DNA from: a virus
Length of the DNA: 64,000 bases
Direction: 5' to 3' (one strand)
UHGV virus genome: UHGV-0033546
The first letter of the stretch is position 1. The number at the start of each line of letters is the position of its first letter. Below the pieces are notes generated by a model. The model saw only the letters and a list, made by a program, of their open reading frames with translations, ran no database searches and was not told where the DNA came from. The translations under genes were made by a program, and so were the position numbers. Shown here piece by piece: positions 1 through 55,755 of this stretch.

Positions 1-234
1 CTGCTTCAATAACATCCAAGTCATCATCAATTTGAATTATTTTAACGCTCGGTTTTTGAAGCATTACCGCATTCAAAAATCTTTTTTGTTTACATGAGCT
101 CCAATATTCCTTTCCGGAAGAGTCATATATTATTCCGTTCTCAAATGAGCAATTTAATTTACTACCGATATAGTAGTATGGCGGAGTCTTATTTTTGACA
201 CGGTCTTCAAATGTAAACCAATATACTATATTCA
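1..234 (-). CDS. Freestanding GIY-YIG-like homing endonuclease (seg-like), N-terminal part; ORF runs off the window start
   Basis: ATG at 234-232 on minus strand, open to position 1; N-terminus MNIVYWFTFEDRVKNKTPPYYYIGS resembles a degenerate GIY..YIG motif and is paralogous to the ORF at 51229-52116; sits where T4 has segG between 32 and 59 (from memory). Confidence 0.5.
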
Positions 235-236
235 TA

Positions 237-50545: not shown

Positions 50546-51232
50546 TTAAAAATCATGGGTAGAATCAGCTTCAAGAGCTACTACATAATTCGCGTGTTCA
50601 CCTTCAAATTTAGCAGCACCTTGTTTACCTTTTGCCCAGAGCAGAAGTTTATAATTTCCTGGTTGCATTTTCATATTTGCCATATTGATAATGAAATTAA
50701 ATGTATTTTCACCATCATAATCACCAAGATTCAAAGAATATTTAACACGGGTCAGAGCAGAATCTTCTACTTTATTAAAACCGTTAATTACGATTTTACC
50801 TTCTTTTACCGTGATAGCAATTGTATCAATTTGCAGACCACGAGATACACGCAACAGTTGTTGAAGGTCTTCAGCTTTAATTTCAGTAACAACAGATGCT
50901 ACCGGGAATGGAATTGGTTTATTAGGAGCAACTACTGTACTCGGATCGGCTGCTGGCCAAAAAATTGTTGAACGAGCATCAGCAATTTTAATATTTCCAT
51001 CTTCTGATTGGGAAATTTCTGCATCATCATTAACTAGGGACAGAATACCGAGAAAACCGTTCAAATCGTAAATTGCTACATCAAAATCAATAGTGTCAGA
51101 AATATTTGCTTCCGCATAAGTTGTACCATTAACTGCGCGAGTCATAATAAATTGACCAGATTTAAGCATAATACCGGAGTTAATAGTAGCGAAATTTTTC
51201 AAAATATTCAGTGTGTCTTTAGATAATTTCAT
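50546..51232 (-). CDS. 45: Sliding clamp gp45
   Basis: 228 aa; T4 gp45 length. Confidence 0.9.
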   Translation of the reverse strand: MKLSKDTLNILKNFATINSGIMLKSGQFIMTRAVNGTTYAEANISDTIDFDVAIYDLNGFLGILSLVNDDAEISQSEDGNIKIADARSTIFWPAADPSTVVAPNKPIPFPVASVVTEIKAEDLQQLLRVSRGLQIDTIAITVKEGKIVINGFNKVEDSALTRVKYSLNLGDYDGENTFNFIINMANMKMQPGNYKLLLWAKGKQGAAKFEGEHANYVVALEADSTHDF

Positions 51233-52116
51233 TTCAATTTCCTATTTACATAATAGTTAGACCAGGACCGTACAGCACCCTGATAAGATTCGTCGTTAAA
51301 CCCATTAGCTACTGCAATTTTACGAAATTTATTATAACTCGGTTTTCCGTAAGCATGCCATAAAGATTTTAATTCATCTTCATGTTCAATCCAAGTTCCT
51401 CTAGCTTTAGATTTTCTAAATTTTGATTTGAATTCCGGTGAATTATTTCTAACAGTTGCTTGAATTGAAGCTCTCTGTCTTCTTTCAGCATTATTCCATA
51501 ACTCTTTTTGAGATTTAGAAATTTTTGATTTTACACTTTCTGAATTCATTATATCACTAAACTTTTTAGCATAACTGCAATCAAGATATTTCAATTTCAT
51601 CTTATTTGAAAGTTTAAGCTTTTTCTCATCGGTCCAGTGATTCTTCATTGAATTAGATATTTTGTATTTTACGTCAGAACTATGTTTGTAACCTTTACGA
51701 ATACCAACATAATCGGGCGTAATTTCAGATTGCGAAAGCTTTACAATTTTTCCAGTTAAAACATTTTTATATGTTCCATATCCTTTAGCGCCAATTAAAG
51801 TATTTTCATCTGCGTATGCTTTATTAAAATATTTTATATTACTTTTTGCTTTAACTTTTAATTGAAAAAATCTTTCCAATTTTCTTGGATCTAATATAGT
51901 TTCAGCTAAAATTTTGACGGTATATTTAGTGGTTTTAATAAGCTCAAAATATTCATCGCTATAACTCGATGACACGCTTCCAGTATAAATCTTTCCAGCT
52001 GAATCAATTATATTTGTTCCATCGAAAATTGCGTCAATTTTCGAACCTATATAATAACATGGAAAAATATTTTTAGCTTCCCGCTCTGGAAAGCTAATAA
52101 GATATACTAAATTCAT
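51229..52116 (-). CDS. Freestanding GIY-YIG-like homing endonuclease (seg-like) with NUMOD3-like repeats
   Basis: 295 aa between 45 and rpbA; N-terminus MNLVY...YYIGSK; two K-SxEx-KIS-S-K-W repeats; paralogous to ORF at 1-234. Confidence 0.6.
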
Positions 52117-52502
52117 TTATTAAAATCAGCCGCAATTGTTTCTGCAACAATTTGAGCAGCGACAATTAGACGTTCATCTGCATTACCACAATAATCATCT
52201 TCAAGGCGTTCACCACATGAAGTCATAATAAATTTAGCACCGGCGTTTAAAGATTCTGTCGTATGTTTGCGCATTAGTTCAATCCATTTATTACTTACTT
52301 CACGATCGATAGCTTCATAATACGCATAACGAGCAGGTGCAGATTTAATTTTATCCTGAATAATTTCCATTGCGTTTTCAGAAAGAGACAAAACCCATGC
52401 TCGACGAATTTTATTTTGGTTTTGTGGATTTGAATCAGAACGCACGTGTTTTGGCTGAATATCTTTTACATCAACAGTATAATTCACAGTAATTTTAGTC
52501 AT
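52113..52502 (-). CDS. rpbA: RNA polymerase-binding protein RpbA
   Basis: 129 aa; T4 RpbA length and position. Confidence 0.8.
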
Positions 52503-52511
52503 AATACACCT

Positions 52512-52700
52512 TTAGTCATAATAATCAGTAACAGTCCAAGCTTCATTTCTGTTGGACATTATTTTCATATATTCTGCTTTAAATGCATTCTTAAGCATAG
52601 ATTCAGTAACTATATGCTCTTCATTAGAAAAATTATTTCTCAGAATATATCGTTTTATTTCAGGAATAGTTAATAGATGCTGTCCAGTTGAATATTCCAT
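52512..52700 (-). CDS. Hypothetical protein (62 aa)
   Basis: ORF downstream of middle promoter. Confidence 0.5.
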   Translation of the reverse strand: MEYSTGQHLLTIPEIKRYILRNNFSNEEHIVTESMLKNAFKAEYMKIMSNRNEAWTVTDYYD

Positions 52701-52717
52701 GTTTTTCCTCCATAGAG

Positions 52718-52743
52718 ATTATACTCTAATAAATTAAAGCATA
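52718..52743 (-). promoter_or_regulatory. MotA-dependent middle promoter
   Basis: minus strand TATGCTTTA (MotA box) -N11- TATAAT. Confidence 0.55.
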
Positions 52744-52755
52744 ATCTCTTGTAAA

Positions 52756-54438
52756 TTAAACCATTACAGTAAATCGACCAACTTTCTTCATCTGAAGATG
52801 CTGACCATATTCTTGCGGGTCATGGTCTTTATGTGAAATTATAAAAACATTAGTGTTTTTCATTGAATTTATAATATTAGCTACACCTTTAATACCTTCA
52901 GCATCAAATGACCCGTCAAACACTTCATCGAGTATTAATGTACTAATACTAACACCAGATACAATAGAAGCAATATCACGCCAAGTAAATAAAAGAGCAA
53001 TATCAATTCGCGCTTTTTCACCTTCACTAAATGAAGCATAACTAAAATCTTCACGACCACGGGATTTAATTGTTTCATTAAATTCTTCATCTAATGTAAA
53101 CACATAATCCGCTTCCATTATTTTAAGATAATGGTTAATCTGCTTATTAAATAATGGAATGTACTTTTTAATAATAGCACCTTTAATACCAGAATCTTTG
53201 AGCATATCAGTCAAAATTCCTCTGTGGTATTTTTCCATTACTAAATTAGTTTTTGTTTTAACAATTTTATCAAGTTCTTCTTGAAGCAGTGCTATTTCAT
53301 CAGCATGGTCAATAAACTCGGATGATGCTTTTTCGATAGCCGCTTTAACTTTTTTAGCTTTATCTACTGTGGTGATTAAAGACTGCTTTTTATTGCGAAT
53401 ATCATTTGCCAACGTCTGTTGGGTTTTAATATTATCTCGGTATTCATCAACGAGAACTTTTAAATTATCACGATGTGTTGAAAGCTGTTCAAACGAATGT
53501 GTGCATTCAGAAACTTTATCTTTAATTTTAGAAACAACTTTATCACCGGAACTTAATTGTGACAAACAGGTTGGACATAATCCACCTTCGTGATACATAT
53601 TAATGACTTTATTATACGAGTCAATTTTTGATTTAATTAAAAATGCTTCTTGACCGATTTTATTAAATGCATCAGTCGGGTCTTCATCCAAAACAATATT
53701 AACTAATCTTTCATTAGCTTCTTCTATTTCCGATTTTAGTGTTCTAGCTTCTTTTGCCAAATCATCATACATATTCTGTAGACGAGTAAGATTATCACCA
53801 GTTAATTTTTTCTGGCGTTCAACATTATCGTTATATATTTTAATTTGTTGGATAATACTGTCTTTTTTAACATCAAGCACTTGGTTCTGCGAATTTAATT
53901 CACGTATTAGTGCTTTATTAAGCTTATCCATTTCAGCTAATGTTCCTACCTCAAGCAGGTCTTCCACAAGCTTTCTTCGCGCAGGGGTCGACAAACCCAT
54001 GAAAGGGGTATACCCTGCTGTACCAAGGACAACAATCTGCTTGAAACTGGCATATGACATTCCGATAAGCTGTTCAAATTCTGCTTGGAAATCTTTACTG
54101 CTGGCAGATTCATTAAGACGTGTACCGTTAACGGTGATTTCGAAAACGTTTGGTTTTTGTCCTCTTTTGATATAGTACTTTTTCTCATCATATTCCATCC
54201 ACAATTCAACTAAAAGTTCTTTCTTATTTGTGCTGTTTATTAATTGGCCTTTCTTTACATCACGAAATGGCTTGCCAAAAAGCCCAAATGTGATGGCTTC
54301 TAACATAGTAGACTTACCACCGCCATTTCGTCCAGTAATAAGAGTTTTTTGAACCTTATCTAATTGAATGTCAACTCCATTTTGACCAACTGACATTATA
54401 TTTTTATATTTTACTCTATTAAGTTTAAATGATTTCAT
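52756..54438 (-). CDS. 46: Recombination endonuclease subunit gp46 (Rad50/SbcC-like)
   Basis: 560 aa; Walker A GRNGGGKST; T4 gp46 length. Confidence 0.95.
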   Translation of the reverse strand: MKSFKLNRVKYKNIMSVGQNGVDIQLDKVQKTLITGRNGGGKSTMLEAITFGLFGKPFRDVKKGQLINSTNKKELLVELWMEYDEKKYYIKRGQKPNVFEITVNGTRLNESASSKDFQAEFEQLIGMSYASFKQIVVLGTAGYTPFMGLSTPARRKLVEDLLEVGTLAEMDKLNKALIRELNSQNQVLDVKKDSIIQQIKIYNDNVERQKKLTGDNLTRLQNMYDDLAKEARTLKSEIEEANERLVNIVLDEDPTDAFNKIGQEAFLIKSKIDSYNKVINMYHEGGLCPTCLSQLSSGDKVVSKIKDKVSECTHSFEQLSTHRDNLKVLVDEYRDNIKTQQTLANDIRNKKQSLITTVDKAKKVKAAIEKASSEFIDHADEIALLQEELDKIVKTKTNLVMEKYHRGILTDMLKDSGIKGAIIKKYIPLFNKQINHYLKIMEADYVFTLDEEFNETIKSRGREDFSYASFSEGEKARIDIALLFTWRDIASIVSGVSISTLILDEVFDGSFDAEGIKGVANIINSMKNTNVFIISHKDHDPQEYGQHLQMKKVGRFTVMV

Positions 54439-54453
54439 TTTGTATCCAATTGT

Positions 54454-55308
54454 TCACAATGAAGAAAATTCTTTAACTAAAGCCTGTAATGAAGCCTCTA
54501 TTGGATATCCATTCTTAACTAACATTTTCCTAAACATCACATGTTTAGGACGATTATATGATATCCACAATTCATACAATTTATCTTTATTATCCCAATG
54601 ATAGCCTTTTCGTCGAGATGCTATATGAGCTTTTCTAATCTCCGGATTTTTCCAACTAGCAGCTACTGAATTTAATATAGCTATTTTATATTCAGGTTTT
54701 GATAAAGCAGCACGAACAGCCTTTTGGTGTTTAATTTTATTTTCTTCGTTATTAAACCATTCCCTTGAAGCCATTGAAATTTTTTGTTTTGTTTTAAAAT
54801 TATTTAATCTTTCTTTGTTATCTTTCCTATTTTTTGCTACTGAAAAATATTTTAATGCCCTTTCTCTAGCAACATTTCTATTTTGTGGATTTGAATAATA
54901 CTGTTGAAGCCTTTTTGATATTGTGTCACTTACATCCTGTCTTATAAAACTATATTCAGCAGCTATTAAATCAACTTCGGCTAAAGATAAATTTTTATAT
55001 GTTTTTCCTGACATCATTCTATTTAAAGCATTTAGCATTTTTCCATTTTTACCTTTTGCTAATAAGAAATGTGCTTTGAAATGATTAAAATGACTTAAAT
55101 TAACTAAATTCCATGTAGATTTTAAATATTCAGGAAATATTGATTTAGGAAGCACGTGGTGTGCTTCCGTTTTACCTGGAGTTTTAACAGTTGAATTCAT
55201 AGAAATAAAATTAATATAAGACTTGGCGTCTTCTTCACTCAACGCTAATTTTTCAACTAATTCCTTTATTAAAAATTCATCATTAATATCAAGTTTAAAA
55301 TTCTTCAC
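54454..55308 (-). CDS. Freestanding HNH homing endonuclease (mob-like)
   Basis: 284 aa between 47 and 46; HNH motif AHHVLPKS...NLVNLSHFNHFKAH; NUMOD-like basic repeats. Confidence 0.65.
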   Translation of the reverse strand: MKNFKLDINDEFLIKELVEKLALSEEDAKSYINFISMNSTVKTPGKTEAHHVLPKSIFPEYLKSTWNLVNLSHFNHFKAHFLLAKGKNGKMLNALNRMMSGKTYKNLSLAEVDLIAAEYSFIRQDVSDTISKRLQQYYSNPQNRNVARERALKYFSVAKNRKDNKERLNNFKTKQKISMASREWFNNEENKIKHQKAVRAALSKPEYKIAILNSVAASWKNPEIRKAHIASRRKGYHWDNKDKLYELWISYNRPKHVMFRKMLVKNGYPIEASLQALVKEFSSL

Positions 55309-55520
55309 AAAAGATTCCTTTTAATGTATCTTTTAGACCATTCTATCATATCATCATAATCTAAAAAGTATTCATCAAATTCAGCCATGCAAACAACACC
55401 TTGTGCTGCTTTTGATGTGATATAAATTATTCCAACATATCTAGAATCTTCTTCGGTGTAATCAATATTTGCTATGAATTCATCATTAATGTCAAATGTC
55501 GAAAACTTCACAGTATGCAT
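55305..55520 (-). CDS. Hypothetical protein (71 aa)
   Basis: ORF-track 87 aa trimmed to MHTVKF to reduce overlap. Confidence 0.4.
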   Translation of the reverse strand: MHTVKFSTFDINDEFIANIDYTEEDSRYVGIIYITSKAAQGVVCMAEFDEYFLDYDDMIEWSKRYIKRNLL

Positions 55521-55755
55521 CCTTAATACAAGATATGGCTGTATCTTGTATTGATTTAGGTGTGTCATTATCTAAAATGTTGAAGTTAAAAGATACAGCC
55601 CAGTCAGTGCAGACCGTAACCTTTTTAATACAGTTATCTTCAACTTCTAGTGGTTCAAACCAGTATTCAATAATTTCTTTATGACCAATATCATCTTTTA
55701 CTTCGCATTCAAAATGCTGACTCATCATAACATTTTTAAATTCATCAAAAGTCAT
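55492..55755 (-). CDS. Hypothetical protein (87 aa)
   Basis: ATGA overlap with gene 47 stop. Confidence 0.5.
   Translation of the reverse strand: MTFDEFKNVMMSQHFECEVKDDIGHKEIIEYWFEPLEVEDNCIKKVTVCTDWAVSFNFNILDNDTPKSIQDTAISCIKDAYCEVFDI

Follow-up and report, generated by a model that had tools for sequence, protein, structure and literature searches.

An open reading frame inserted in a T4-like phage between rpbA and gene 45 is a probable SegG-like GIY-YIG homing endonuclease gene

We analysed a 64,000-nucleotide stretch of the virus genome UHGV-0033546 (the window, whose positions supply all coordinates given here), a segment of a T4-like (Tequatrovirus) genome in which an open reading frame (ORF) of 295 amino acids (aa), ORF295, lies between rpbA and the sliding-clamp gene 45. 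Judged from its sequence, ORF295 is probably a free-standing homing endonuclease gene from the SegG-like branch of the GIY-YIG superfamily, inserted at the rpbA|45 junction; we put the probability of this reading at about 0.7. The protein is built of an N-terminal domain of the GIY-YIG fold, a beta linker, a degenerate NUMOD3-like helical region and a C-terminal module common to T4 Seg/Mob proteins (Table 1).

The original prediction, which was made from the letters alone, had placed a 295-aa ORF at 51229-52116 between gene 45 and rpbA, and this was borne out exactly by the ORF listing and by Pfam matches of the neighbours. ORF295 is read from the minus strand, starts with ATG and comprises 295 codons plus a stop; the minus-strand gene order is 46 (52756-54438), 45.2 (52512-52700), rpbA (52113-52502), ORF295, 45 (50546-51232), 44 and 62. 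The rpbA product matched Pfam Phage_RpbA (E 8.7e-41), the gene 45 product matched both Pfam gp45 domains (E 6.5e-52), and the identity of 45.2 was backed by Pfam Gp45.2. By its conservation ORF295 is no chance ORF: aa conservation is 95-100% in ~25 phage records and 55-62% in other genera, with a ratio of nonsynonymous to synonymous substitution rates (dN/dS) of 0.1-0.2. The orthologue is labelled "(putative) homing endonuclease" in some GenBank records (PaulHMueller, F13076 and the RefSeq record of SHBML-50-1) and "hypothetical" in others, and was left uncalled in the original GiZh record.

Break points of the insertion were determined with BLAST against T4, DalCa and six Tequatrovirus loci from IMG/VR. 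Homology ends at the last codon of rpbA and restarts at the ribosome-binding site of gene 45. In T4 and DalCa the gap between rpbA and gene 45 consists of a 55-bp spacer and nothing else; the small ORFs that the original prediction placed in this slot of T4 do not exist there, the small ORF 45.2 being situated upstream of rpbA. Megablast of the locus matched 642 phage records, of which 25 (~4%) carry ORF295, the query elsewhere splitting into two around the ORF; none of 16 loci from IMG/VR relatives (gp45 identity 53-99%) has it, and in all 16 rpbA adjoins gene 45. The comparison of the 45-rpbA junction that had been proposed as a check thus came out in favour of an insertion, with ORF295 absent from T4, DalCa, 16/16 IMG/VR relatives and ~96% of matching records. 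This is the presence/absence polymorphism expected of a homing gene: one fixed site, conserved genes on both sides and genomes that are otherwise collinear.

Evidence for the nuclease assignment comes from the N-terminal domain. ORF295 matched two PHROG families, phrog_655 (E 3e-32) and phrog_7504 (E 3.4e-17 over aa 1-103), both annotated "homing endonuclease", and BLASTP against T4 SegG gave 38.8% identity over 103 columns (E 3.7e-15). An exhaustive HMMER search returned 147 cluster representatives at E <= 1e-30; among 144 aligned relatives residues Y5, Y22, G24, Y44, S47 and N98 are invariant and V4, P19, I23, S25, K26, E81 and F97 near-invariant, and ORF295 retains every one of them. When an N-domain profile of 101 sequences was compared by hhalign with T4 SegA, SegD, SegE and SegF together with I-TevI, the match had a probability of 96% (E 3.7e-9, 89 columns) and paired the GIY tyrosine, the YIG motif, the Seg-type Y-x-GS, the glutamate and the asparagine, with Y5, E81 and N98 corresponding to the canonical Tyr, Glu and Asn. 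In the structure model V4-Y5-L6 is located on a predicted strand (2-8) and Y22-I23-G24 on another (21-26), and the alpha/beta fold of the GIY-YIG catalytic domain is recovered for the ORF295 N-terminal domain. Foldseek against viral models returned SegG, Seg-like, GIY-YIG and NUMOD endonucleases. The original call of a seg-type, GIY-YIG, free-standing homing endonuclease therefore stands, supported by the identity to SegG, the phrog_7504 match, the hhalign result and the insertion polymorphism.

Past the nuclease domain, the structure model predicts three short strands within 113-138, followed by helices from 147 to 291. NUMOD3 matches were obtained at E <= 0.01 in 97 of the 144 relatives, and the family profile, searched against the Protein Data Bank (PDB), found only the DNA-binding (NUMOD3) part of I-TevI (1i3j, E 3.6e-5). 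In ORF295 itself, a crude NUMOD3 seed hidden Markov model (HMM) made from T4 proteins gave its two best yet weak matches, 3-6 bits, at 145-159 and 192-205. The two NUMOD3-like repeats of the original prediction are therefore visible at about these positions, with weak seed-HMM scores and below the Pfam threshold; the motif is real for the family as a whole, and in ORF295 it is best called degenerate NUMOD3-like. The C-terminal module consists of predicted helices 243-255, 261-270 and 279-291, modelled with low pLDDT (about 50-65). The last ~50 aa resemble by BLASTP the tails of SegA (176-207, E 0.001) and SegF (E 0.01), and aa 93-286 were 26.7% identical to aa 70-282 of a 284-aa HNH ORF elsewhere in the window (E 2.6e-12). 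That homology indicates that, within 2.3 kb, one DNA-binding module is combined with nuclease domains of two kinds. The HNH ORF (54454-55308, minus strand; motif HHVLPKS...NLVNLSHFNHFKAH) is a mob-like free-standing endonuclease gene that matched phrog_655 (E 1.2e-44) and phrog_12434, "HNH endonuclease". It is like ORF295 in its C-terminal ~200 aa (helical repeats plus terminal module) and in the phrog_655 match, and unlike it in having an HNH nuclease domain and in occupying a slot upstream of 46. It is placed between gene 46 and two 87-aa ORFs (55305-55755), upstream of gene 47, where T4 has no gene; the two 87-aa ORFs occupy the place of 46.1/46.2 of T4.

Among T4 proteins the closest counterpart is SegG (gp32.1), whose gene is located between 32 and 59. 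The likeness to ORF295 is confined to ~100 N-terminal aa, where both have the motifs VY..., PxYYIGSK, Y-x-(G/S)-S, E and YFN and match phrog_7504; both genes are free-standing and adjoin an essential replication gene. The C-terminal two-thirds of ORF295 are unrelated to SegG, a protein of 210 aa, with no significant match past residue 100, and the insertion site is 59|32 for SegG and rpbA|45 for ORF295, so that the targets must differ. SegG has been studied by experiment; ORF295 is known from its sequence. Compared with canonical I-TevI (PDB 1ln0/1mk0) and SegA/D/E/F, ORF295 has no PF01541 match, a longer GIY-YIG spacing and no residue aligned to Arg27; I-TevI, encoded within an intron, has a zinc finger that is missing from ORF295. 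The window also holds part of a segG gene of its own: its minus strand begins with 59, 33, dsbA and rnh, preceded by the partial segG, which adjoins 59 as in T4. The original prediction had described a truncated paralogue at 1-234; its homology to the ORF295 N-terminus is real (37% identity to ORF295 residues 1-70), while its coordinates are 2-235 and the gene is SegG itself. The suggestion of an endonuclease family that had spread within this genome was an over-reading, the paralogue being an ordinary segG, 37-39% identical; by this divergence ORF295 and segG are old paralogues and not the product of a recent intragenomic burst. A SegG-like profile detected no further such ORF in the window beyond these two, and no window ORF fitted the canonical GIY...YIG pattern, loosely defined, in a Seg-like context. 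The phage may lack segA and segF, both of which are in the corresponding T4 region, as seen without a direct check of the uvsX and gene 56 neighbourhoods.

The same rpbA-45 slot is held by full-length alleles with 55-62% aa identity in the Mosigvirus phages FL31 and AV115 and the Gaprivervirus VR26. These, and PaulHMueller bas45_0164 (98% aa identity), have the position, orientation and gene 45 overlap of ORF295. The VR26 orthologue VR26_053 (L032 2501-3388) is annotated from an internal ATG as a 210-aa "putative DNA endonuclease", which is too short; the full 295-aa frame starts at a GTG overlapping the rpbA stop, a start missed in the annotation. Two copies are frameshifted: that of the Tequatrovirus EC121 (L027) by a 1-nt insertion near codon 20, just ahead of the YIG motif, and that of AV115 (L031) by a 4-nt insertion that breaks the ORF into two. 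Such copies represent the decay to be expected in a selfish endonuclease gene, and their existence means that the phage can do without the protein while the DNA stays. For intact Tequatrovirus copies dN/dS was 0.10-0.17 for the whole of ORF295, 0.04-0.06 for the nuclease domain and 0.16-0.48 for the remainder; between genera it was ~0.2, with saturated dS. These low values indicate that selection has maintained the protein, its nuclease domain most strongly.

We aligned the flanks of ten carrier and eight non-carrier Tequatrovirus loci; the analysis rests on these because the 16 loci obtained from IMG/VR were all without the insert. Fixed differences between carriers and non-carriers are found in the final codon of rpbA, at four sites of the gene 45 ribosome-binding region (51233-51240), and at 51226, 51224 and 51215, where codons 3 and 6 of gene 45 differ silently. 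They are confined to ~20 nt at each junction, with none farther out. In a sequence table of 32 loci the gene 45 start ATGAAACTGTCTAAAGAT is common to non-carriers of several genera, and every carrier lineage deviates from it. In the Mosigvirus copies recoding extends over the first ~27 nt of gene 45, amino-acid changes included: gene 45 of FL31 is 96% identical overall to that of its endonuclease-free relative L014, versus 57% over the first 30 nt, and among the differences are a serine codon of the other family and four amino-acid replacements. On the rpbA side FL31/L014 homology reaches the stop codon. This pattern suggests that the recognition or cleavage site probably includes the gene 45 start, and that carriers are immune; alternatively, the recoded start could be a very short co-converted flank. 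Gene 45 has in addition a polymorphism at codons 8-11 (~51199-51211) that is unlinked to the endonuclease, reading TTALL in T4-type phages and TLNIL in the window, DalCa and L006, with ~9 nucleotide differences in 15 nt.

No Shine-Dalgarno sequence is present upstream of ORF295, and its ATG overlaps the rpbA stop, which together point to low-level translation coupled to rpbA, from an existing polycistronic message; several promoter-less seg and mob cassettes have been described as expressed in this way (PMC2988022). The insertion has consequences for gene 45 as well. The spacer of non-carriers holds ATTGCTTTA-N12-TAAAAT, a sequence consistent with a MotA-dependent middle promoter, and this promoter-like element is deleted by the insertion. 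A T4 promoter Pm45 is documented by primer extension (PMC6024815). Within the 3' part of ORF295 a candidate MotA-type promoter (Table 1) is present at one ORF position in 10/10 Tequatrovirus copies, the version in FL31, AV115 and VR26 being TGCTTTA-N12-TATATT; it may replace the lost spacer promoter for gene 45. A precedent is segG, where promoters of the downstream gene 32 are embedded within the endonuclease ORF (PMC2988022). The late promoter sequence TATAAATA was found neither in nor around ORF295 in any allele. A terminator-like hairpin with a 10-bp stem and a 5-nt loop followed by AAATATTTTT is located at 52073-52097 on the minus strand, starting 19 nt into ORF295. Considered as a regulator of endonuclease expression, it was dropped as a defining part of the element, having a folding z-score of only -1.37 and being missing from the FL31, AV115 and VR26 alleles; it might damp expression of the endonuclease in the lineage of the window, or it might represent chance.

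These observations can be combined into a proposed course of events. ORF295 would probably be transcribed within the 46-45.2-rpbA-45 unit and weakly translated via rpbA coupling. In cells co-infected by a T-even relative with the bare 55-bp spacer, the enzyme would cut that genome at or close to the border of rpbA and 45, with a target that most likely includes the first 20-30 bp of gene 45; T4 recombination-dependent repair would then copy the endonuclease gene, plus a few flanking bases, from the carrier. The carrier genome is proposed to be protected because its spacer is gone and the first gene 45 codons are recoded. The substitute promoter inside the 3' part of ORF295 would stand in for the deleted spacer element, and its location there would make the element hard to lose.

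Several results weigh against the assignment of ORF295 as an active GIY-YIG homing endonuclease, and they have to be set against the alternatives. Scans of ORF295 with Pfam (PF01541 and PF19835, at E <= 1) and NCBIfam gave no GIY-YIG match, PF19835 being touched by only 9/144 family members (best E 3.3e-4). The original prediction had named the lack of a GIY-YIG profile hit as refuting it, and formally that outcome was reached; the test, however, proved invalid on calibration with T4 proteins, in which SegA, SegD, SegE and I-TevI matched and SegG and SegF gave no match at all, although both are listed in a review as active GIY-YIG homing endonucleases (PMC2988022). A missing Pfam match is therefore uninformative for the SegG-like branch. 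Foldseek against the PDB ranked I-TevI at the top, yet non-significantly (E 3.2), and phmmer of ORF295 against PDB sequences returned noise only. No arginine of ORF295 is aligned to the catalytic Arg27 of I-TevI, for whose position K26 and K42, conserved in the ORF295 family, are candidates; and the GIY-to-YIG spacing is 17 residues versus the usual 10-11. Since T4 SegG shares both the spacing and the missing arginine, the N-terminus that had been termed degenerate has the normal motif of the SegG-like subfamily, and not one in decay. The Pfam NUMOD3 match (PF07460) is sub-threshold, scoring 10.4 bits where the cut-off is 20.4 (E 0.65, aa 142-158). The lack of a Pfam match, the lack of a counterpart of Arg27 and the non-significant Foldseek result are what would be expected if the N-terminal domain were no nuclease, the GIY/YIG letters coincidental and the protein solely DNA-binding; given the SegG similarity and the retained family residues, we regard this as very improbable. 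For the proposed target, the endonuclease-free phages RPN226 (L033), LH2 (L034) and ERS-1 (L035) were found by a 45-nt search to have a normal spacer together with the carrier-type gene 45 codons 3/6. On account of these three Tequatrovirus phages we rejected a strict linkage between the insert and the silent changes in gene 45; the allele is not strictly tied to the insert and may be a linked flank only, and the three phages may represent resistant empty sites or descendants that have lost a former insert. For the proposed promoter, the embedded match overlaps a conserved protein motif, and the MotA-type pattern is loose with chance matches common, FL31 having four per 1.1 kb.

Alternatively, ORF295 could be a former homing endonuclease that has become immobile and is kept for the transcription or translation signals of gene 45, or for an adopted phage function of the protein (DNA binding, regulation). 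The loss of the spacer MotA-box element with a candidate substitute inside ORF295, the overlap of the ORF295 stop with the gene 45 start, the rarity of the insert (~4% of genomes) and the decayed copies in EC121 and AV115 all fit this; on the other hand, purifying selection is strongest in the nuclease domain (0.04-0.06 versus 0.16-0.48), where a promoter carrier predicts the opposite, all family-invariant nuclease residues are kept, and the frameshifted copies show the protein to be dispensable while the DNA stays. We consider this history rather unlikely. Somewhat less likely again is an active site-specific nuclease that serves mainly in competition or exclusion and not in its own spread; it would cleave the DNA of co-infecting relatives close to an essential replication gene, as in marker exclusion, or promote local recombination or amplification. 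SegG is described in a review (PMC2988022), and in the title of a paper, as promoting marker exclusion; a 2026 paper reports that SegB drives amplification of anti-defence loci; and the target proposed for ORF295 is an essential gene, that of the sliding clamp. Beside ORF295, however, neither defence nor anti-defence genes were seen; sequence cannot separate exclusion from ordinary homing, and both may hold together. A conserved core gene of the phage group that T4 happens to lack would account for the tight packing among essential genes and for nothing else. Such a gene, found at this position in all relatives, was the other outcome held to count against the original prediction; ~96% of the matching records lack ORF295, as do all 16 IMG/VR relatives (gp45 53-99%), where rpbA adjoins 45, and this explanation is already refuted.

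With homing as the preferred reading, its parts can tentatively be joined. It is possible, and in our estimate less probable than its failing in some part, that the first 20-30 bp of the essential gene 45 are recognised, that immunity is conferred by a recoded 45 start travelling along with the insert, that the MotA promoter function has been absorbed so that loss is hard, and that the DNA-binding module is the same as in the HNH endonuclease 2.3 kb away; if so, one targeting module would have been swapped between two nuclease chemistries inside a single replication-gene cluster. No paper on an endonuclease insertion at rpbA|45 was found in searches of the literature. With ORF295 the Seg family of homing endonucleases in T-even phages gains an uncharacterised member, at an insertion site outside the T4 catalogue. 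The comparison of three genera gives a concrete target prediction, the gene 45 start, and also predicts how the promoter of an essential gene persists after insertion; nothing fundamental is changed by ORF295 in the general understanding of homing endonucleases. Since the Pfam GIY-YIG profiles miss the whole SegG-like branch (at least 147 clusters at 50% identity), its genes are often entered as "hypothetical protein" or, as in GiZh, left uncalled.

Table 1. Positions of ORF295, its predicted parts and associated features in the window (. = no strand assigned)
Feature	Position	Strand	Basis
ORF295, probable free-standing SegG-like GIY-YIG homing endonuclease gene	51229..52116	-	ORF listing; phrog_655, phrog_7504; GenBank labels of orthologues
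Inserted segment, 875 bp, without counterpart in endonuclease-free relatives; stands for 51 bp of the 55-bp spacer	51244..52118	.	BLAST break points, junction alignment
Predicted N-terminal nuclease domain, SegG-type GIY-YIG, aa 1-105; conserved Y5, Y22-I23-G24-S25-K26, Y44-x-G46-S47, E81, F97-N98	51802..52116	-	
Linker, aa 106-142, three short predicted beta strands; family-conserved motif YGTYKN..TGK.VKL....YVG	51691..51801	-	Model secondary structure, family consensus
Helical repeat region, aa 143-242, degenerate NUMOD3-like motifs	51391..51690	-	Weak Pfam NUMOD3, family NUMOD3 matches, 1i3j match, seed HMM
C-terminal helical module, aa 243-295, presumed DNA-binding, common to SegA, SegF and the neighbouring HNH ORF	51232..51390	-	BLASTP, model helices
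rpbA stop/ORF295 start ATGA overlap	52113..52116	-	Sequence, ORF coordinates
ORF295 stop/gene 45 start ATGA overlap	51229..51232	-	Sequence, ORF coordinates
Recoded gene 45 start and ribosome-binding region; proposed cleavage target or immunity site	51215..51240	-	Fixed differences, 32-locus sequence table, Mosigvirus
TGCTTAC-N12-TATAAT inside ORF295, a candidate MotA-type middle promoter of gene 45, ~100 nt ahead of the gene 45 start codon	51331..51355	-	Pattern at fixed ORF position
segG, N-terminal 78 codons, cut by window edge	2..235	-	98.7% identity to T4 SegG 1-78; phrog_7504 E 1.2e-48

A different annotated "homing endonuclease" of 717 nt is located on the opposite strand between 45.2 and 46 in F13076 (L029 3856-4572) and FL31 (L030 1081-1797), and is missing from the window (site ~52700-52760). 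Across relatives, the region 52700-52999 of the window had 32-37 variable sites per 100 nt, compared with 5-13 elsewhere.

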